IMG/VR virus record: IMGVR_UViG_3300035670_000096
Origin: a virus
Reading direction: 5' to 3' (one strand)
Length of the DNA: 64,000 bases
How positions within the stretch are numbered: position 1 is the first letter of the stretch; each line of letters opens with the position of its first letter. This document shows, piece after piece, positions 543 through 45,805 of the stretch. The notes below the pieces were generated by a model, which was not told the DNA's origin, searched no databases, and saw only the letters and a program-made list of their open reading frames with translations. The position numbers were made by a program, and so were the translations under genes.

Positions 543-805
543 TGCCTTCTTCGGTCACGATTACCCCTCGCAAGCTTTTCAAGGAAGACTTGCAGTTGAC
601 TACCAGCCCTAATGCCGCTACGTCTAACCAGACCGTGCTTGGCCTTGGTTCGGTCGCTCTCAATCCGATTGACGCAGTTCTTTACTCTGCCTTTATCCAA
701 GCCGCAGACGACCAAGCAGCTCATAACGCAGGAGTTGACAAAGGATATCTCTACTACAATACATCTACCAGTAAGCTGAAGACCCAGATGACCCACGGCA
801 ACTAA
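542..805 (+). CDS. hypothetical virion-module protein
   Basis: 87-aa ORF, translationally coupled to the previous ORF. Ends 2 nt before the start of the 1774-aa gene. Confidence 0.6.
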   Translation: MPSSVTITPRKLFKEDLQLTTSPNAATSNQTVLGLGSVALNPIDAVLYSAFIQAADDQAAHNAGVDKGYLYYNTSTSKLKTQMTHGN

Positions 806-807
806 TC

Positions 808-3800
808 ATGGCTCAAAACGTAACGCAGAGATTCCCATTTTCAAATAAAGGTGTCGTTCAAAAGATCGACATCAACCAACTGCAAGATGGTCAGTACTCA
901 TTCCTTTTGAATACTGTTTCCGAGCAGGAGGGGTCTCTGTCTCCTCGTTACGGACATCTTAATCTGACTGGTTCTTGGCCTAGCGGGACTCCGGCTTACG
1001 CAACTTCACTCCATGTATCCCAAATAGGAGCCACGTCAACTCCGACGTTTTTTCTTTCTGAAGGCACTAATATATACCGCAAGATCGGACCTTCGGGAAA
1101 CTACGAACTGATAGCTTACAATGTATCTACCTCAAACAAGCGACCCGGCATAGCTACGTACAAAACAGATCAAGTCGGAACAACCGGCATGACTTATATC
1201 GCCACAGGGTATAATGCATATCCTGGCGGCGACTACACAAGGGGGATGATCCGCAATAACGGCGTTGCTGCATCGACCGCTAAGTACTGGGGTATAATCC
1301 CGCCAGCCAAGCCAGCCTTGATTACGCCCAGCACTATGACTATCAAGGATATAGTCGTGACTGGATCTTCCGGCACTATCAACTTGGCTAATAATCGCGC
1401 TACAAACAACATCGCAAGCGCCACTGAAGAGCCTTCAGGTTCTAAGTTCTGGAAGATAACATTGTCTGGATCTCCAAGCCCCCAATGGCTCCCTGGCGTA
1501 TATATCACGGATGGATCCGGGCAGGCGTCTGTCATAGAGAAGGTTGACAAGAACGGAGTCGTTTACGCTTACTTCGCCAATCAGCCAACTACATCCATCA
1601 CGGCAAAGGAAACCGCTACTATTACAGCCTCTAGTGCGGGTGTTCCCTTTTCTGTGTCTTCTGCGACATTTTCACCCCTTGTTGACTTGTCATTTGGGCA
1701 ACAAAACGAGGACGAGGGGTATATCAGCGACGACACAGTTGCCTTGTCCTTTTATACCCAGTACCCTGAGAGGATATACGACATCAGGCTTAGGTTGTAC
1801 GTATCGAATGATGACTACTATGAGAAGGCTATCTCTCCGGGGGAGGCTCAAAATCTCCAAAACGCAGCCACGTCAAACTCCACAACAGACCCAGACAACC
1901 CAGAAGCCGCTTCAGAACTATGGAACTACGGCAGGGCGCTAGAGTCTAATGACTACACTATCCCTACAGGAGTAAAGATTAACTACGACCAGACTCAAGC
2001 CGGGTTGAACCCAGCGTTCCTTACGCCATCAAAATCTGGCGTCGGAGGGTGGAGTCAGGTAGAGATATCCAAGCGGTCATTCGTAGCCGTTGGCGGCTCC
2101 GGCAGTCCTGTAGACGGATCCGGAAGACTTAGCTGGGCTAATATCACGAAAGTCGAAGTGCTAGTCCGCCCGGTACTAGCTACCGATGTAGTGTCTTTCA
2201 AGCTAGGCGCAATCTTCGCTTACGGCGGCAAGGGTATTAACTCGAACTACAACGCAAAGCTAACTCCTTATCGCTATGTCTACACGTACAAGAATAGTGC
2301 TACAGGAGCAGAGAGCAATCCCTCTATCGAGATGGTTCCGGAAAACGGTCTAAACCTAATCCGGCAGGGCATTAACGTGAACATGCTCGGAATAGACCAG
2401 ACGGACACGCAAAGCTTCAGTTCTGAAGTGGATAAGATTTATGTGTATAGGTCTGGAGGTTCGTTTGTTGACGGATTCTACCGGCGAGTAGGTATTATCA
2501 ATAACGTTGATGCCGGGGCAGTGAATTTCATAGATACCGCTGACGATATCTCGATTGCGGGAGCGCCTATTGCGGAGTTCGACAACGATGCTCCCGTTAC
2601 TTCTGATATAGGCTTCGAGTATCGAGCAAAAACGAGCGGCGCTATAACCAGGAATGTCTTGTCAACCATCACACTTACTGACATCACATACCCTGGTGGC
2701 GGCGATTTAAGGTCTATCCTTACCCCCGGAACGGTAGTAAATATCGGAGGTGCTTCCGATCTAGCCACCGCTGCCAACACAACAGGCAAGCAAGAGTCCT
2801 GCATCGTTCTCTCTGTTGGCGCTTCTTCTTTTACGACCTATACTCAGTACGATCACGTAACCGGGGAATACATTACATGGGATACCAACGCCGGTAAATC
2901 CTGCGATGTGCTCTGCTCCGCTCTTAACCGCATGTGGGTATCTGGAGACACGGCCAACCCGCATATTCTGTATTCGTCAAAGACGGGAAGGCCGGAATCA
3001 TTTCCGGTGATTAACGAGATAACTGGTAATCCTCACGTAATAGCAGTATCATCTCCTGATAATCCGATAAACGGCATTGCTGAGTTCAATAGCGAGATTG
3101 TCTGCCTGTGCCAGAACGGGATCTATACTGTAAGGCTCGACAACGGAAGGCTCATTGGGCCGTTCAAGACTCCAGCTAATAGAGGGCTAGTGCTCAAGCA
3201 CGCATGGGGATACGTCGATAACGAGATATGGTTCCTTAGTAACGACGGCATCTACGCTTGGGGCGGCGGATCGGTACGGAAGGTTACATTTGCGATTGAC
3301 TTCATCTTTAACCGAAAGAAAGTTAACGATATCGCCTTTTTCGACCGAAGCAACTCTACATATTACCCGCTTTGCAATATCCAACAAAAGAACAATGAGG
3401 TGTTTTTCAACTACATCAACTCGGATGGCTGGTTCTTTATCCTTCGATACAATCTCTTGTTTGACCGATGGAGCCTTGACGAGGTGTACGATCCAGCTCA
3501 GTTGCAATACCCAAACGGAGAGTCTACCAGAAACGGAATCAACCTAAGGCCGACAGCTATAACTGCACTTGCGGCGGAGAAGGCAAGTGGTAAATTGTAT
3601 GCGTCTAAGACGATAGCCACAGGAGACTGGAACGACCCAGGCGGTGCTTCTTTTGGGATGTCCTTAATCGACTACGACGAAGTTTCCACCTATACCGATA
3701 ACGGAGAGCCAATCTACTATCAAGCGGAAACAAAGTTCTACGACATGGGCGCTGCCTTGGTGAAAAAGAACTTCACCGATATTGGCCTTGAGTTCACGTC

Positions 3801-6132
3801 AGGGACTGGCACTGACGCTGGGAACACTTTCTTCTACCGGGTTTACTACGACTACCTAGCTAACGCCATAAATGCAAGCACGCTGACGGCAGCCGACAAC
3901 GGGAAGACTTACGAGATATTGTTTGCAGGGACGACCGACTTTACCACTATCGGTGCGGCAAGCAGTACAGTGGGACTGACGTTTGTGAAGTCGGGCGCTG
4001 GAGCTACGGGAACTGGCTCAGTAATAGAAGTAGACGCTGGCGCTATATCAAACGCATCTTCTGGCCGTCAAATCGCAGAGTTTCCACTTCAACAATTAAG
4101 TAACGCTTCTTCAGGAAGAGAGGCTCGCGCCGCCTTATTCAGCCTTCATGGGTTATCGAAGGCATACAACACATTCCACAACTTTGCCTACACATTCATA
4201 CCTCTTTCCGATGTAATCAAGGGCAGGGTAACGGACTGGGACGACCTGGGCCACCCATTTGATAAGAGGCTCTTCAACGTAACCATTGAGTACGACAACA
4301 ACAATACAAACCTAGTCTTACTACTAGATACCATTAGTGGATTAAATAGCGCCACTACAACCCTTGGAGCGCAGACTATCACTCTTCCGGCCAAGGTCGG
4401 CAGGGCTAAGAGCAGTATCCCCATTACCGCCGATATCATCGCCAAGATGGTAAGGATCCGCCCTCAAGTAGCTACAACTGATTACCAGATATTCAACTAC
4501 TCCTTCCAGAAGGAAGACTACCCAAGGGATATCGTCAATAACACCGACTGGTCGGACCTTGGTTATGCATACGAGAAGAGGCTGTATCAGTTGTATATCA
4601 ATTGCGACACCAACAGTCAGAACGTCAGTGTCGCCATTGAAGCAGACGGCGCTGTGCTTCAGACTGTCACTGTAAACGGAAGCGCGACGAATCGTATGCA
4701 GACGATTCCGATCAATAAAGACCTGATCGGAAAGCTAATCAGGCTAAAGGTGTCCGGTGCTATCCCTTCTGGAGGAAAGTTCCAGTTATTCGACTTCAAG
4801 TTTGATTACGAGAAACTCCCCCAGCCTGCCGTCCTATCTACTCCGTGGACGGACTTTGGATACGACTACTTGAAGTACGCCGAGCAAGTCAGCTTCGATG
4901 TGAATACGAACAATCAGCCTGTTCCTGTTTCAATCTACGGAGACGGCGTACTAATGCAGACCGTGACCGTGACCGGCACTCAGGCTAATAGGAACCAGAT
5001 TATAACACTGGATCCGGGGCTTACTTTCCGTACAATGAGGCTTGAAGTTGGTGTTATTCCGGCAGGCGGAAGGTTCCAGTTATGGGATTATAGGCCAATC
5101 TTCCGACCAGCGGATAAGGGAGAGGTTTACCACACGTTCGACTGGGACAACCTTGAGCATCCATACGACAAAAAGATCAGCGAAGTAACCATTGAGTTCG
5201 AGACTACTACCGCTGACGTAAGAATAGCTATCGACACGCTATCAGGCATAGACGGGAACACCAGAACCACTCCCTTCCAAACCCTAACCCTACCCAACAC
5301 TAGCGGGAATAGAGGCTTTAAGACGTTCCCGATCAACGAGACGATATGCAAGATGGTTCGGGTCCGTGCCCTTGGACAGCTATCTGACAACAAACTGCTT
5401 GCCTCGTTCAAGATGTGGGGATATAGGTTCGGCAACACGATCCCGTATCCTCCCGATATTCAGCGGTTTTCTGAATGGACCGACTTGGATTACCCTTGCG
5501 ACAAGATATTCCGTGGAGTCGGCCTTACGATTGATACTGGCGGCGTGAACTGCACTGTTAATCTTGAAGTCGATGGAGTCATTAAAGAGACTTTCACGGT
5601 CAACACTACAAGCGCGTCCCGGCAGGTATTTCTGACCGCACAAGACAATGTGGAAATCATTGGGAAGATGTATCGCCTTACCTTCATCCCAGGAGTTAAC
5701 GGCAAAGCGCAAGTATTCGGCGTGCCGCAATTTAACACGGTAAAAGACTCTTGCCCATTTGTCTTTCTTGACAGCTACGAGCAAGGTCTAGGAAGCGCGG
5801 GGTATTCGGCATTGAAGCAGTTCTGGGCTGATTACAAGTGCGCTGGGAGCATAATCATTAAGTTCTACAACGAAGAAAATGTCTTGTTCTATTCCAAGAC
5901 GCTTCCGCCACACGCATCTAGGGACGTGCAAAGATTCTACTTGCCATCGAAAAATGGTAACGTGATAAACAAGAGCAAGAAGCATCGGATAACGATTGAG
6001 TCCGCAGACCCGGCTCTGCCGTTTAAGTGGTACAGGGACACCTCCAGGCTGGAGTACATTAACCTGTCATCCGATCAGCGCCAAGGGTATTATCAATTTA
6101 TCCCGTGGACCAATATGCAATTGCCGGTATAA
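808..6132 (+). CDS. giant tail protein (possible tail-tubular-B/nozzle-like N-terminus fused to repeat domains)
   Basis: Uninterrupted 1774-aa ORF. The N-terminus (NKGVVQKIDINQLQDGQ...EQEGSLSPRYG) weakly resembles, from memory, the T7-type gp12 N-terminus. The C-terminal third is five tandem ~100-aa repeats. Confidence 0.55.
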   Translation: MAQNVTQRFPFSNKGVVQKIDINQLQDGQYSFLLNTVSEQEGSLSPRYGHLNLTGSWPSGTPAYATSLHVSQIGATSTPTFFLSEGTNIYRKIGPSGNYELIAYNVSTSNKRPGIATYKTDQVGTTGMTYIATGYNAYPGGDYTRGMIRNNGVAASTAKYWGIIPPAKPALITPSTMTIKDIVVTGSSGTINLANNRATNNIASATEEPSGSKFWKITLSGSPSPQWLPGVYITDGSGQASVIEKVDKNGVVYAYFANQPTTSITAKETATITASSAGVPFSVSSATFSPLVDLSFGQQNEDEGYISDDTVALSFYTQYPERIYDIRLRLYVSNDDYYEKAISPGEAQNLQNAATSNSTTDPDNPEAASELWNYGRALESNDYTIPTGVKINYDQTQAGLNPAFLTPSKSGVGGWSQVEISKRSFVAVGGSGSPVDGSGRLSWANITKVEVLVRPVLATDVVSFKLGAIFAYGGKGINSNYNAKLTPYRYVYTYKNSATGAESNPSIEMVPENGLNLIRQGINVNMLGIDQTDTQSFSSEVDKIYVYRSGGSFVDGFYRRVGIINNVDAGAVNFIDTADDISIAGAPIAEFDNDAPVTSDIGFEYRAKTSGAITRNVLSTITLTDITYPGGGDLRSILTPGTVVNIGGASDLATAANTTGKQESCIVLSVGASSFTTYTQYDHVTGEYITWDTNAGKSCDVLCSALNRMWVSGDTANPHILYSSKTGRPESFPVINEITGNPHVIAVSSPDNPINGIAEFNSEIVCLCQNGIYTVRLDNGRLIGPFKTPANRGLVLKHAWGYVDNEIWFLSNDGIYAWGGGSVRKVTFAIDFIFNRKKVNDIAFFDRSNSTYYPLCNIQQKNNEVFFNYINSDGWFFILRYNLLFDRWSLDEVYDPAQLQYPNGESTRNGINLRPTAITALAAEKASGKLYASKTIATGDWNDPGGASFGMSLIDYDEVSTYTDNGEPIYYQAETKFYDMGAALVKKNFTDIGLEFTSGTGTDAGNTFFYRVYYDYLANAINASTLTAADNGKTYEILFAGTTDFTTIGAASSTVGLTFVKSGAGATGTGSVIEVDAGAISNASSGRQIAEFPLQQLSNASSGREARAALFSLHGLSKAYNTFHNFAYTFIPLSDVIKGRVTDWDDLGHPFDKRLFNVTIEYDNNNTNLVLLLDTISGLNSATTTLGAQTITLPAKVGRAKSSIPITADIIAKMVRIRPQVATTDYQIFNYSFQKEDYPRDIVNNTDWSDLGYAYEKRLYQLYINCDTNSQNVSVAIEADGAVLQTVTVNGSATNRMQTIPINKDLIGKLIRLKVSGAIPSGGKFQLFDFKFDYEKLPQPAVLSTPWTDFGYDYLKYAEQVSFDVNTNNQPVPVSIYGDGVLMQTVTVTGTQANRNQIITLDPGLTFRTMRLEVGVIPAGGRFQLWDYRPIFRPADKGEVYHTFDWDNLEHPYDKKISEVTIEFETTTADVRIAIDTLSGIDGNTRTTPFQTLTLPNTSGNRGFKTFPINETICKMVRVRALGQLSDNKLLASFKMWGYRFGNTIPYPPDIQRFSEWTDLDYPCDKIFRGVGLTIDTGGVNCTVNLEVDGVIKETFTVNTTSASRQVFLTAQDNVEIIGKMYRLTFIPGVNGKAQVFGVPQFNTVKDSCPFVFLDSYEQGLGSAGYSALKQFWADYKCAGSIIIKFYNEENVLFYSKTLPPHASRDVQRFYLPSKNGNVINKSKKHRITIESADPALPFKWYRDTSRLEYINLSSDQRQGYYQFIPWTNMQLPV
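4226..5760 (+). repeat. five tandem ~100-aa (about 300-nt) domain repeats inside the giant tail gene
   Basis: Each unit starts with a related motif: TDWDDLGHPFDKR, TDWSDLGYAYEKR, TPWTDFGYDYLKY, FDWDNLEHPYDKK, SEWTDLDYPCDKI. Each ends with a hydrophobic F/W-x-Y/F strand such as FQLFDFKF, FQLWDYRP or FKMWGYRF. Confidence 0.8.
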
Positions 6133-42296: not shown

Positions 42297-45143
42297 TCAG
42301 ATCCTCTTTTTAGCTAGTAGTGAAGATATCAAGGCTTGAGCCTGCCCAGCGTTCATGGAGTGGCGAAGAACAGCCTTGTATTTATTTATATCGCCATTCA
42401 TCTTCGCTACGCCACTTCTATCTATCTTGGCAAGCAAGGCGATCTGCTTATCAGATATAGGATTCCCTCTCCAAGCCGCACTGCTGCTGCCAGCTTTCTT
42501 CTCTTCCGAGGTAAGCCGCTTTTCCGCCTTGCCGATAGCCTCTTCCAGTGTGCTGCCGACTCCCGCGAAGGAACTAACCCCGTTTGTGTTTATCTTAACG
42601 TCGTACATCCCCATCGAGTTCGGCCTGACCGTCATGGTCCTGGTCGGCATATTAAGGATGTATGTGTCGTCTTTCTTGATCCATGACATATCAGAGCACT
42701 TCCCTACTTCCTGGGGCGTCTCAGGAATGGATACCAGATCGACTTTCTCGATAATCCCGGTCAACGTGGTCGGGTCCTCGATCTCCTCAAGGTTGGTTTT
42801 CTTTTTGATCTTATCCGGCAGCTTATCAACTAGGTTCTCCAAGTCCTTTGTGAACTCTTCCAGTCTCTTGCCTTTGGTGTCGATCTTTGGATTAAGGCCA
42901 AACAGGGTTGGAACAGATATTAGGTTGTGCCGGGAGGAAACGTCAACGAAGTCGATGATAATGGCCGTGTCTTTAATCCAGTCAGGTTCTTTCCCGGCTT
43001 CCCGCATTGCGTTTAGCGTCTCTGGGGCAGGGCAAGGACGAAGCACTCGCCCAACGGCTTGACGGTAGATGAGGCCGGAGCGGAAAGGGCGAACCATGCA
43101 GCCGACTTCTACCGTAGGGTCGTCGTAGCCTTCGCAGAACAAGAGAGCTGACATAAGCGCAGTTAGTTCTCCTCGCTTGTGCATGTCTATTATCTCTTTG
43201 CGTGTTTGCGCCGGAGTCCTCGATGATACCGCCATCGCTTTAACCCCTTGCTTGTTAGCCTCAGCCGCCAAGTCTTCAGCGTGCTGAATATCCAACGTGA
43301 AGAATAGGGCCTTCTTCCCCTCGGCTATCTCCTTGTACTTACTTATGACGAGTTCGTTCCGGGCCGGAGTGTTGATCTTCTTTTCAAGCTGTCTGTGGTT
43401 GAAATCTCCAGCGGTGATCTTGACATCAGAGATATCAACCCTTGTCTCTACTCGGTAGGCTTCGATGTCGGTCAAGTATTTGTTCTGGATGCCCCACCGG
43501 ATGTCTCGGCTGGCGGTTATCCTGTTGAAGAACTCGTTAAGACCTTTGTTGTCGGAGCGATTCGGTGTGGCGGTCAGTCCGAAAAGTATCTTAGATTCAT
43601 CGTTATACCGCTCATCGCTAAGGTAAACCTTGAAGTATTTCAAGGCGTTTCTGAACGTGTCAGAACTAGCTCTGTGGCAGTTGTGTACTAGTACTCCGTT
43701 GGCGTAGTAGTTGTTGTTTCCTTCAACCTCGAAATTGTAGACAAAACCACCTGGACACATTCCTCCAAATGTCCCATCACTTGTTTGTTCGTGAATCTCA
43801 ATACCGACCACCCTCGCTGTTCTAGGAAATCCTGTTTCTTTCTGTCTTGAATTTGCCTTGATATCGCACAATGAGAATTCCCGTCCACTTCGATTGCTAT
43901 CATTAGTTCTGGAATAGCCACGTCGATCTTGTAGTGGGTCGGGTATCCACTTGAACGTCCGGTCATTGTTCTGTATGGATACTGAGGCGATAGTTTTAGT
44001 GTCGTACATGTGGCCAATCCGTGAAGGATCTTCTCTTCTGCTGCTGTTAACCCGTGACCGTTCCCGCCTTGGATTCTCGGCTTGTGCCCCATTTCTGTAA
44101 GCTTCTTTGAGACGAGATCCCTGATTTCTTTTTTGTGCATGGGGTTCTGTTTCTTCATTCTCTCTGAAGCATACTTCCGGTTGTATTCCGCTAGGTATTC
44201 CCCGCCTTTCTTGTGGCGAAGATAATGAACCGCCTTGTCGCACTCTTTCGAACAAGTGAATACCGCGTTTTTTTGCTTCAACAGACCCTTCCCTGACAAC
44301 TCCACTTCTTTGTTGCAGTGTTGGCAGTTCATGTAGACTCTTTTCCTTCGGGCCTCCCTCGCTACCTTCTTGCAGTCCTCTCCGCAGTATGGAACCATAT
44401 TTTTGTTCCATGATCTTGGCATGTACGTCTTCTCGCAGACTGAGCAGTTCTTTGGCTTCACGGTTCTCCTCTTCCTTGCTGTCGCATAGAGTAAGTATAT
44501 CATTGTACGCGATGCGATTGGCAGGAACATATTCGCCGTTGACAAAAAAGGGATGTTCTTCTGTGCATGTGATCTTTTGCCCATTGGACAGGCTTATTGT
44601 CATTAGAGATGAAGGCTTACTCTTGAACAGCCTAACGACTGGGCGTAGTTCTTCCGTTTTGGCTTCGTGGTTGAATGAACTAACAAGATCACCCGGCCTG
44701 ATTAACTCAATCGGCCTGCCGTCGATCAGTGTCCCGGCGACGAAACACTCATCTACAATTACTATGTCGAACGTATCCGGGTCTATTGACTTGAGCCTTT
44801 CGCTAAAAATAGGCGTCCCGTCCTCCTCTTCCCGCGTTGATCCGATTGTCTGGATACTAGCCACGACGACTTCAGAATCGGGAGTTGAGCGGTGCTCTGC
44901 TTTCTCCACACTTACGGTTAGCTCCGGGTAGGACGCCCTCACTTTATCAACTGTCTGCCATACCAGCTCCTCTCTGTTGACGATAATCAAGGCACGCTTC
45001 TTGCGGAGCCTGCCGACGATATGAGCCATGAGGACAGTCTTGCCTAAGCCAGTGGCCCAAACGATCAGGTTTCTGTTTCGGCCAGCCATGATATCCATCT
45101 GGCACTTAACCAAGTCTTCTCTCTGGTATTGGCGTAGTTTCAT
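42297..45143 (-). CDS. superfamily-2 (DECH-box, ResIII/UvsW-like) helicase interrupted by an intein in motif II
   Basis: Motif I ATGLGKT. Motif II is split as IVIVDE | intein | CHRASS. Motif III GLTATPNRSD. Motif VI QAVGRVLRP. Confidence 0.85.
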   Translation of the reverse strand: MKLRQYQREDLVKCQMDIMAGRNRNLIVWATGLGKTVLMAHIVGRLRKKRALIIVNREELVWQTVDKVRASYPELTVSVEKAEHRSTPDSEVVVASIQTIGSTREEEDGTPIFSERLKSIDPDTFDIVIVDECFVAGTLIDGRPIELIRPGDLVSSFNHEAKTEELRPVVRLFKSKPSSLMTISLSNGQKITCTEEHPFFVNGEYVPANRIAYNDILTLCDSKEEENREAKELLSLREDVHAKIMEQKYGSILRRGLQEGSEGGPKEKSLHELPTLQQRSGVVREGSVEAKKRGIHLFERVRQGGSLSSPQERRGIPSGIQPEVCFRENEETEPHAQKRNQGSRLKEAYRNGAQAENPRRERSRVNSSRREDPSRIGHMYDTKTIASVSIQNNDRTFKWIPDPLQDRRGYSRTNDSNRSGREFSLCDIKANSRQKETGFPRTARVVGIEIHEQTSDGTFGGMCPGGFVYNFEVEGNNNYYANGVLVHNCHRASSDTFRNALKYFKVYLSDERYNDESKILFGLTATPNRSDNKGLNEFFNRITASRDIRWGIQNKYLTDIEAYRVETRVDISDVKITAGDFNHRQLEKKINTPARNELVISKYKEIAEGKKALFFTLDIQHAEDLAAEANKQGVKAMAVSSRTPAQTRKEIIDMHKRGELTALMSALLFCEGYDDPTVEVGCMVRPFRSGLIYRQAVGRVLRPCPAPETLNAMREAGKEPDWIKDTAIIIDFVDVSSRHNLISVPTLFGLNPKIDTKGKRLEEFTKDLENLVDKLPDKIKKKTNLEEIEDPTTLTGIIEKVDLVSIPETPQEVGKCSDMSWIKKDDTYILNMPTRTMTVRPNSMGMYDVKINTNGVSSFAGVGSTLEEAIGKAEKRLTSEEKKAGSSSAAWRGNPISDKQIALLAKIDRSGVAKMNGDINKYKAVLRHSMNAGQAQALISSLLAKKRI
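43680..44747 (-). mobile_element. class-1 intein (356 aa) whose central ~220 codons are the out-of-frame read-through of a nested endonuclease gene
   Basis: VDE|CFVAGTLIDG (block A), ITCTEEHPFF (block B, TxxH), GFVYNFEVEGNNNYYANGVLVHN|CH (blocks F/G). The middle is R/S/E/G/Q-rich with no endonuclease motif visible in this frame. Confidence 0.8.
43688..44584 (-). CDS. Vsr/DUF559-type (PD-(D/E)XK) endonuclease with CxxC zinc modules, encoded in an alternate frame entirely inside the helicase intein
   Basis: 298-aa ORF in a different frame from the helicase (44584 mod 3 = 1 versus 45143 mod 3 = 2). YKIDVAIPELMIAIEVDGNSHC...QDRKKQDFLEQRGWSVLRFTNKQV, plus CSVCEK..YCGEDC and CQHCNK..FTCSKEC. The true start may be an internal Met. 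Confidence 0.7.
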   Translation of the reverse strand: MGKRSHAQKNIPFLSTANMFLPIASRTMIYLLYATARKRRTVKPKNCSVCEKTYMPRSWNKNMVPYCGEDCKKVAREARRKRVYMNCQHCNKEVELSGKGLLKQKNAVFTCSKECDKAVHYLRHKKGGEYLAEYNRKYASERMKKQNPMHKKEIRDLVSKKLTEMGHKPRIQGGNGHGLTAAEEKILHGLATCTTLKLSPQYPYRTMTGRSSGYPTHYKIDVAIPELMIAIEVDGNSHCAISRQIQDRKKQDFLEQRGWSVLRFTNKQVMGHLEECVQVVLSTISRLKETTTTTPTEY

Positions 45144-45805
45144 CGAATTACCAAGTTCTGTTCCTGATATGCCTCAACACCGGGGATCGACATCATTGCG
45201 CCCATACTGCGGGCCTTGGCGTCGAGCGCCTTCTGGTCTGGGATAAAGTATTCCCGGTAGCGCGGGTCCTTAACAGCAGCCGCCCAGAGTTCGTCGAGGT
45301 TAGTAATCCGCGCCTTGAACGGACTCTTGCGCGTGCCAGCGCCCGACTTGCTGACGGTCTTCGTAAACACGGGCATCTCAGGCTCCGGCGTGTCGTCGAG
45401 CGGTGTCCATTCCGCCTTGGCCTTACGCGCTTCTTCAATGAGTCGATCACGCTCTTCCTTGAGCCGCTTCTCTTCAGCCACCCGCCATTCAAGGCACCGT
45501 TTGCGGAGATTAGACTTGGTAATCTCCGCAGGTTCCTTTAGTTCCTTGATTAGCGAGTTGAGGGACTTGACGGCACTGTTGAGAGGCTCCTTGATAGAGG
45601 AGAATTTGTCGTCCACTCGCTTGATGTAGTCGTCCGCCTTCTTGATAATGGAAACCGCCATATCATGAGTTGACTCGCTATCAACGGCAAGGTCTAAGCA
45701 GGCGATTGTCTCGACCTCTTGAAGTTCCTGGCCGATATCAGGCATGGTGATCTCAGGAACTAATACCTCGCTCTTTTCCAAAACGTCTTGCATGTGTTCT
45801 CCCAT
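45140..45805 (-). CDS. hypothetical protein (start uncertain; ATG at 45793 has the better RBS)
   Basis: 221-aa ORF, coiled-coil and charged. Sits between the exonuclease and helicase genes. ATGA overlap with the helicase start. Confidence 0.55.
   Translation of the reverse strand: MGEHMQDVLEKSEVLVPEITMPDIGQELQEVETIACLDLAVDSESTHDMAVSIIKKADDYIKRVDDKFSSIKEPLNSAVKSLNSLIKELKEPAEITKSNLRKRCLEWRVAEEKRLKEERDRLIEEARKAKAEWTPLDDTPEPEMPVFTKTVSKSGAGTRKSPFKARITNLDELWAAAVKDPRYREYFIPDQKALDAKARSMGAMMSIPGVEAYQEQNLVIR

Follow-up and report, generated by a model that had tools for sequence, protein, structure and literature searches.

Introduction

Can an intein carry the gene for its endonuclease not as a fused domain but as a complete second reading of the same DNA? 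The question is raised by a helicase gene in the IMG/VR virus record IMGVR_UViG_3300035670_000096, of which one stretch of 64,000 nucleotides (nt; hereafter "the window") was analyzed here. A preliminary description of this window, made from the letters alone, had reported a helicase of the SF2 type whose motif II is split by a class-1 intein and, on the same strand but in another frame, an open reading frame (ORF) within that intein for a Vsr/DUF559-type nuclease. On the evidence presented below, we hold with good confidence that the locus is a mobile intein with a homing endonuclease gene that is overprinted on it rather than fused to it.

One Intein, Two Open Frames

The helicase reading (the "host frame") is continuous, as first described: no internal stop interrupts its 948 aa, and translation would run straight through the intein. 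The product falls into PHROG 16 (DNA helicase, 7e-65), and its Pfam matches are ResIII/DEAD (aa 1–133), Intein_splicing (aa 152–488, in two halves of about aa 152–215 and 445–488), and Helicase_C (aa 605–702). The intein is 356 aa long (C133 to N488), splits motif II as DE|CH, and matches PF14890 at 5e-10 (39.8 bits, cutoff 35.8). Its borders are exact: two intein-less alleles (P0124 and P0126; 573–591 aa, 74–83% identical) read ...VDE|(C/T)HR... on alignment and yield the same intein coordinates as the preliminary description. Intein residues C1, T62, H65, H355, and N356 are invariant among 43 homologues, and the intein ends ...VLVHN488|C489. An AlphaFold2 (AF2) model of the intein in the host frame, built with these 43 homologues, has a beta-rich HINT fold at both ends (score predicted for the local distance difference test, pLDDT, 85–97), whereas the middle reaches only 34–58 and is predicted to be disordered, without a fold. 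Consistent with the earlier remark that no endonuclease motif is recognizable there, Pfam finds no domain in the host-frame interior besides the split Intein_splicing match; one further frame of 44076–44477 gave a sub-threshold match only.

The nested ORF begins 559 nt from the helicase start and thus lies in the +1 frame. Its TAG stop (43690–43688) is formed by the CTA GTA codons of block G (VLVHN), 4 codons ahead of the terminal Asn of the intein, and its tail ETTTTTPTEY* is GNNNYYANGVL read in the shifted frame, just as had been noticed. The nuclease overlaps the C-terminal splicing blocks by about 43 codons (~130 bp), such that nearly the whole C-terminal splicing half doubles as the nuclease C-terminus, while the host-frame sequence of the interior is dictated by the overlapping nuclease frame. 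The stretch open in both frames, first put at about 220 codons, is in fact 298–301 codons long.

Selection on Both Frames

A stop could arise in the host frame only if AA, AG, or GA follows a nuclease codon whose last base is T. Because a T-to-C change is always synonymous there, the host frame can stay open without any change in the nuclease protein. When the synonymous codons of the window nuclease were permuted, a mean of 11.6 host-frame stops arose against 0 observed, and 0/2000 permutations reached 0, which bears out the earlier estimate that a doubly open frame of this length is improbable by chance. The same held for 16/16 nested loci tested, with 0 host-frame stops against 4.9–13.6 expected (P≤0.0025 each, mostly 0/2000 permutations). 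Specifically, nuclease codons ending in T before AA, AG, or GA number 0/42 to 0/95 per nested locus, while T occupies the third position in ~20% of other nuclease codons. A free-standing relative of the nuclease (L015) served as a control and has 9 stops vs 10.8 expected. As judged by these permutations, the open host frame is itself under selection.

Substitution patterns address the other frame. Between the window and a relative (L007, 86% identical), changes at host positions 1/2/3 amount to 11/4/50 in the N-extein, 13/7/36 in the N-terminal half of the intein, 41/16/16 in the interior, and 50/29/221 in the C-extein. Changes in the exteins and the intein N-half thus concentrate at host position 3, and those in the interior at host position 1, i.e., nuclease position 3. 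Seven independent close pairs gave 147/142/388 substitutions at nuclease positions 1/2/3. By this measure the nuclease frame is under purifying selection, and the comparison of homologues that the preliminary description had suggested came out accordingly, with no stops in either frame. There are no indels across the intein between the window and L007, and the lower divergence of the interior in this pair is attributed to dual coding.

Where both frames encode folded protein, the constraint appears to be tighter still. Over the C-terminal splicing overlap (the last ~41 codons), the window and L007 differ by 1 change in 123 nt, compared to 20–22% in their exteins. The same stretch is only 80% identical to that of a nuclease-less mini-intein allele (described below), whose exteins are 94–96% identical in DNA. 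Conservation of these 123 nt agrees with a constraint from both frames that loosens in the absence of the nuclease.

The Nested Nuclease

That the nested ORF encodes a nuclease, as claimed at the outset, is supported by sequence and structure alike. The protein matches DUF559 (PF04480) at 38.8–39.3 bits (curated cutoff 20.6); since its score for the NCBIfam equivalog PRK09767 is 24.7, under the cutoff of 218, we assign it to the DUF559 superfamily and not to that equivalog. An AF2 model of the 257-aa protein, based on a 51-sequence alignment (about 40% identity), reached a mean pLDDT of 91.5 and contains two hairpin modules of the zinc-ribbon type, a middle part made of helices, and an alpha/beta domain at the C-terminus. 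Foldseek against the Protein Data Bank (PDB) placed the DUF559 protein 3HRL first (template modeling score, TM, 0.81) and the catalytic domain of I-Bth0305I (3R3P) thereafter (TM 0.72–0.75; values normalized to the target). Profile comparison of the family agrees for 3HRL (2.9e-9) and is marginal for 3R3P (E=0.1 only); the MYM zinc finger 2DAS was matched at E=0.0036.

The 51 nuclease sequences share 14 invariant and 27 nearly invariant columns. GNG, K178/D180 (YKxD), D193, G194, H197, and D206 are invariant, while C46, C49, C70, and C74 of the zinc ribbons—presumably the DNA-binding part—are nearly so. The spacing of D180-H197-D206 (17 + 9 residues) equals that of D196/H213/D222 in I-Bth0305I, and this spacing, rather than a superposition, suggests that the catalytic residues are equivalent. 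Taken together, the nested product is a probable zinc-ribbon plus DUF559/Vsr-like homing endonuclease. The features of the locus are collected in Table 1.

Table 1. Features of the helicase locus and its nested gene, in positions of the window.
Feature	Position	Strand	Basis
SF2 (ResIII/DEAD-type) phage helicase precursor ORF, 948 aa	42297..45143	minus	ORF list, Pfam, PHROG
N-extein, helicase aa 1–132, ending motif II ...IVIVDE	44748..45143	minus	Alignment with intein-less P0124 and P0126
Class-1 intein, helicase aa 133–488 (C1...HN, then +1 Cys of CH)	43680..44747	minus	Pfam, alignment
N-terminal splicing (HINT) half, intein residues 1–90, blocks A CFVAGTLIDG and B TCTEEH	44478..44747	minus	AF2 pLDDT 88–97
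Host-frame interior, intein residues ~91–309, R/S/E/G/Q-rich linker	43821..44477	minus	AF2 pLDDT 34–58
C-terminal splicing half, intein residues 310–356, blocks F and G, ...FVYNFEVEGNNNYYANGVLVHN	43680..43820	minus	AF2 pLDDT 85–96
C-extein, helicase aa 489–948, starting CHRASS (remainder of motif II)	42297..43679	minus	Pfam and intein-less alleles
Longest ATG-to-stop ORF in +1 frame, 298 codons	43688..44584	minus	ORF list
Probable real nested gene, GTG 44461 to TAG 43690–43688, 257 aa (M/V-KPKNCSVC...)	43688..44461	minus	Homologue starts
Shine-Dalgarno-like AAGGAAGAGGAG, 4 nt upstream of GTG; host frame reads (S)KEEE(N)	44466..44477	minus	Sequence
Two Cys4 zinc-ribbon modules, MYM-like, nuclease residues 1–78	44228..44461	minus	Profile, AF2 beta-hairpins
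DUF559/Vsr-like catalytic domain, nuclease residues 158–249 (YKID, IEVDGNSH, QDrKK, LRFTN)	43715..43990	minus	PF04480, profile, Foldseek

Expression of the Nested Gene

The preliminary description allowed for an internal start or for frameshifting, and had both ends of the nested ORF overlapping the splicing domains. Comparison with homologues favors the first of these routes. L007 has an ATG at the codon that matches GTG 44461 of the window. Homologues called as separate genes are 200–260 aa long and start a few residues ahead of the first CxxC, and those of 250–256 aa start at the point equivalent to GTG 44461. In CP-T1, MR14, and Vibrio phages, an ATG stands 2–5 codons before the first Cys with GAGGT 10–13 nt upstream, a motif encoded there by D-E-V codons of the intein. 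Across 92 distinct nested loci, 55 have a start with a Shine-Dalgarno-like (SD-like) motif upstream of the first Cys (ATG in 43 of the 55; median distance 5 codons), whereas such motifs precede only 15% of start-like codons internal to the nuclease gene. Because SD-like starts lie shortly before the first Cys and because the homologues start at corresponding positions, internal initiation on the helicase mRNA is favored over frameshifting, and the functional start is probably GTG 44461 and not ATG 44584. From this start, the nuclease would begin just past the N-terminal splicing domain and overlap splicing sequence at its 3′ end only; of the two overlaps first described, the 3′ one (about 43 codons) stands and the N-terminal one is probably nil.

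Record L006 (IMGVR_UViG_3300002220_000288), otherwise a 100% match to the window, has RSHAPKN in the +1 frame in place of RSHAQKN (44584–44560), i.e., the two records differ by at least 1 base upstream of the proposed GTG start.

We envisage one helicase mRNA with two readings. Ribosomes in frame 0 would translate the N-extein and the HINT N-half, continue across a disordered "nonsense" linker of ~220 aa, and finish with the HINT C-half and the C-extein, after which protein splicing would excise the 356-aa intein and restore a DECH helicase. Independent initiation at the SD-like motif and GTG 44461 would release a free 257-aa zinc-ribbon/DUF559 (Vsr-like) nuclease from the +1 frame. The nuclease would presumably cut intein-less helicase alleles near DE|CH, and repair would then copy intein and nuclease jointly. 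Indirect hints of such homing come from alleles that differ in whether the insert is present and from free-standing nuclease relatives beside intein-less helicases.

Distribution of the +1 Arrangement

Megablast of the helicase locus against GenBank phages returned no match; without a close cultured relative, we used tblastn. The nested protein then matched 41 GenBank phage records at 38–45% identity, and the 30 matches listed fall under coding sequences called helicase, P-loop NTPase, "coil containing protein," or hypothetical protein. The +1 nesting is present in Vibrio phages CP-T1, 159E43-1b, and 1.088.O, Pseudomonas phage MR14, and Corynebacterium phage phi673. In all five cultured phages the match starts 1 (mod 3) off the beginning of the helicase, no stop interrupts the helicase ORF, and a nuclease ORF of 215–263 codons lies in the +1 frame within a DEC...HNC intein.

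Scans of viral contigs recovered the source contig itself, L007, and many distant relatives; in all, more than a hundred related viruses share the arrangement. In the first scan, the host frame was open across the whole nuclease in 17/20 loci (spans of 687–1101 codons), and in the next scans in 79/80 viral loci and 21/24 genome-contig loci with a full-length relative. Upstream DEC and downstream HN[CST] accompany nearly all nested loci, 3–36 stops occur in the third same-strand frame, and about 100 loci, at identities as low as 34%, have an intact nested ORF. Since the nuclease stops 4–18 codons ahead of the terminal Asn of the intein in nearly all of 82 loci, the 3′ overlap can be regarded as a constant of the family. 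An exhaustive profile search gave 920 cluster representatives (50% identity) at E≤1e-30. Among the best 150, no protein is longer than 500 aa, and these 150 thus include no in-frame domain of a helicase-length protein (≥800 aa).

Two further loci bear on the arrangement. In the viral contig L018, an SNF2-type helicase ORF (604–3891) holds a second, downstream intein (CLAEGTEVL...FIAHN|C) with an R/S/G/E-rich interior, in which a 223-aa +1-frame ORF (2639–3310, plus strand) encodes an HNH endonuclease (phrog_374, 6e-59; Pfam blank); +1 overprinting is thus not confined to the DUF559 nuclease. In L019 (131–2637), the host frame breaks off at 1642, inside block F of the intein, and a different frame carries on the C-extein, which by comparison with L018 appears to be a deletion or frameshift, i.e., a dead helicase or an assembly error.

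Other States of the Nuclease and the Intein

Close relatives of the helicase are intein-less, carry a mini-intein, or carry an unrelated LAGLIDADG intein elsewhere. The nuclease, too, occurs in other states. In L028 (3498–5427) and L170 (3355–5623), it is free-standing, directly upstream of and slightly overlapping an intein-less SF2 helicase with motif II DESH or DEAH, the layout expected of a free-standing homing endonuclease beside its target gene. In L015 and L044, it is free-standing elsewhere. A true fractured helicase gene with a split intein was found in L037 (1759–3396; Lutibacter sp. metagenome-assembled genome contig JBAZGP010000440.1), a contig of very low coverage (0.7x by contig name). 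There, the N-extein-IntN ORF ends TAA TAA just past ...SSDELQVV, the nuclease starts within those codons, its 3′ end is overlapped by an IntC-C-extein ORF that begins with ATG, and the former host frame has 19 stops. As the nuclease family and the frames are the same as in the window, L037 substantiates the link to fractured genes that the preliminary description had drawn.

The allele without a nuclease (P0122; L181:3001–5205) has exteins almost identical in protein to those of the window and, at the same site, a 142-aa mini-intein with the junction ...GEILTPYDDNPTNDFVYVSGFDIH... An independent origin of this mini-intein was considered and rejected: because its splicing halves are 80–89% identical in DNA to those of the window, it belongs to the same lineage, in which the nuclease was either lost or never gained.

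P0130 (989 aa; also P0137), a relative of the window helicase, has no intein at DE|CH. At a second site near motif V/VI (...GATIF|CEGYDD), it carries a different intein of ~400 aa whose LAGLIDADG domain (PF14528) is in frame, and hence at least two intein insertion sites are used in this helicase lineage.

Weighing the Alternatives

Could the second frame be a product of error or decay? The window is a single metagenomic contig, in which two compensating assembly or sequencing errors could in principle have shifted a normal in-frame endonuclease domain. We consider this extremely unlikely: the same +1 offset and open host frame recur in the five independently sequenced cultured phage genomes and about 100 independent metagenomic contigs, which exclude the paired indels that the preliminary description had advised looking for; the window and L007 show none across the intein; and no representative among the best 150 of 920 is helicase-length. 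That only the helicase/intein frame is functional, and the nested ORF a relic in decay that inheritance or chance has left open, would accord with the decay that the homing cycle predicts for endonucleases and with the existence of the mini-intein allele. Yet interior substitutions concentrate at nuclease position 3, 14 columns are invariant and 27 nearly so, the predicted fold is confident (pLDDT 91.5), and the ORF persists intact in about 100 loci to 34% identity, and we judge a relic very improbable, if less so than an artefact.

Two other explanations accept a selected nuclease and are somewhat less remote, though both unlikely. Programmed +1 ribosomal frameshifting would produce an N-extein-IntN-nuclease fusion. 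In its favor, the two frames lie on one strand and one mRNA, the +1 reading already stays open over some codons ahead of the proposed start, and 37/92 loci have no clear SD-like start. Against this, start codons gather 2–11 codons ahead of the first Cys of the zinc ribbons and 55/92 loci have SD-like motifs, free-standing and fractured relatives use their own ATG at the equivalent position, and the upstream +1 sequence is not conserved; frameshifting is nonetheless the least improbable of the four. Only slightly behind it we place the idea that the host-frame interior is itself functional, e.g., as a regulatory disordered linker for conditional splicing, with two selected proteins throughout the overlap. 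Conditional inteins exist, and host-frame motifs such as PDxLQDR recur across loci. However, these motifs are shifted reads of conserved nuclease motifs (PDxLQDR of GYPTHYKID), substitutions occur freely at host positions 1 and 2, AF2 finds no structure, and a nearly identical helicase carries a mini-intein without the whole interior.

Overprinting of a homing endonuclease gene on a mobile intein accommodates these observations best, and some results weigh against it. The N-half of the intein diverges between the window and L007 about as much as the exteins do, and this comparison gave no signal of recent horizontal transfer or homing in the window lineage. By a simple rule, 37/92 nested loci lack an obvious SD-like start, and the window itself starts with GTG behind a short 4-nt spacer. 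RNA structure masking the nuclease ribosome-binding site was not detected in 44421–44520 of the window (z = 0.37), and neither an internal sigma-70 promoter nor a terminator rose above shuffle expectation. A disordered insert of 220 aa might also slow or impair splicing.

Comparison with Known Systems

Out-of-frame endonucleases have recently been described in inteins of actinobacteriophages, namely antisense LAGLIDADG, antisense VSR-like, and same-strand "frame 3" endonuclease VII-like types alongside in-frame HNH, in genes for DNA polymerase, minor capsid, terminase, and thymidylate synthase (ThyX); such inteins were rare (63/784) and predicted to be overlooked (Gosselin, Arsenault & Gogarten, bioRxiv 10.1101/2025.01.02.630785). 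Like these, the window intein is contiguous, with a stop-free frame, a foldless in-frame interior, and an endonuclease in another frame, and the proposed origin, invasion of an intein by a free-standing endonuclease gene, is the same. The window intein nevertheless fits none of their four architectures or host genes. Here the endonuclease is a same-strand +1 zinc-ribbon/DUF559 protein in motif II of SF2/SNF2 helicases, the arrangement occurs in phages that infect Vibrio, Pseudomonas, and Corynebacterium and in many uncultured viruses, the overlap with the C-terminal splicing blocks is obligatory, and the evidence for selection in both frames is quantitative.

Fractured genes, in which Vsr-like or GIY-YIG endonuclease genes lie between split-intein halves and overlap IntC by 6–69 bp at their 3′ ends (Dassa et al., 2009; PMC2677866), share the same-strand order N-extein-IntN, endonuclease, IntC-C-extein, a Vsr-like nuclease, and the 3′ overlap with the IntC region, which in the window extends to about 130 bp. 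The window differs in having neither the 27–51 nt non-coding spacer nor a host gene broken into two ORFs, a feature met only in its relative L037. Because the host frame never stops, the window intein is contiguous and is predicted to splice in cis. The model of Dassa et al. (2009) foresaw fracture or in-frame insertion, not overprinting.

The nuclease itself resembles I-Bth0305I of the EDxHD homing endonuclease family (Taylor et al., 2011; PMC3239194; PDB 3R3P) in its Vsr-like catalytic fold, the D...H...D spacing, and the association with self-splicing elements. Sequence similarity is marginal, however, and DUF559 (3HRL) is the closest family; the N-terminus is made of Cys4 zinc ribbons instead of NUMOD/HTH, and the gene is nested in an intein instead of encoded by an intron. 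Membership in the EDxHD family was rejected on account of the 3R3P profile E=0.1 and the lack of a NUMOD/HTH N-terminus. In ShiLan-type insertions of phage methylase genes, described by the group behind the actinobacteriophage survey, a hidden HNH endonuclease likewise occupies another frame of a stop-free insert, with a GTG start near the 5′ end and a stop near the 3′ end (Arsenault et al., 2025; PMC11855218). There, no splicing domains are detectable and the insert thus stays in the host protein, whereas canonical intein blocks flank the overprinted gene here.

In the open-access and bioRxiv literature, we found no description of inteins in helicase motif II that contain a DUF559 nuclease in the +1 frame of the same strand. 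The principle is already known, recently and in preprint form, and the 2025 reports of out-of-frame endonucleases reduce the conceptual novelty accordingly. What appears new is this particular nuclease family, how abundant it is, its overlap with the splicing blocks as a constant feature, and the fact that all evolutionary states exist side by side.

Overprinting as a Possible Third Outcome

These comparisons raise the possibility, to which we give slightly less than even weight, that overprinting is, beside in-frame fusion and the fractured gene, a third stable result when an endonuclease invades an intein, and is the dominant intein form in phage SF2/SNF2 helicases. On this joint proposal, one nuclease family of about 920 clusters would long have been carried in the +1 frame only, and overprinted loci would be systematically mis-annotated as "helicase" or as a separate small gene. 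Two features of the genetic code may explain the exclusive +1 arrangement. With the nuclease in the +1 frame, synonymous T-to-C changes can always remove host-frame stops. Moreover, 50/51 family members have Met followed by Lys, Asn, Thr, Ile, or Met, often in a conserved RMK motif, and as these dipeptides force stops in the alternative same-strand frame, that frame is disfavored. Common descent is an equally good explanation. Through-translation by ribosomes in the helicase frame would throttle initiation of the nuclease and hence act as a built-in control toward low expression.

The locus fills a gap in the model of how endonucleases join inteins, with one family found free-standing beside its target gene, overprinted in a contiguous intein, in a fractured gene with a split intein, or lost from a mini-intein. 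It provides a long natural dual-coding region, about 257 codons with clear selection in both frames, within which about 43 codons simultaneously specify parts of two folded, functional domains (blocks F/G of the intein and the C-terminal helix of the nuclease). As such, it is a clean natural system for studying dual coding, of interest to intein and homing-endonuclease specialists and surprising to most annotators. For annotation, the implication is that hundreds of phage "helicase" genes hide a second gene, which gene callers either miss or call at the cost of truncating the helicase. Potential tools are natural inteins able to accommodate a disordered insert of 220 aa, as well as the nuclease, a compact and site-specific protein of zinc-ribbon/Vsr-like type.

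Genomic Neighborhood

The neighbors of the helicase gene encode an Erf-like annealing protein and exonuclease-like proteins, i.e., a phage recombination/replication module. The start (ATG) of the helicase gene and the stop of the 221-aa exonuclease-like gene upstream of it overlap by 4 nt (45140–45143, minus strand), and the latter gene in turn overlaps a 187-aa exonuclease gene by 46 nt (45760–45805, minus strand). These overlaps between minus-strand genes suggest translational coupling in an Erf/exonuclease/helicase operon.

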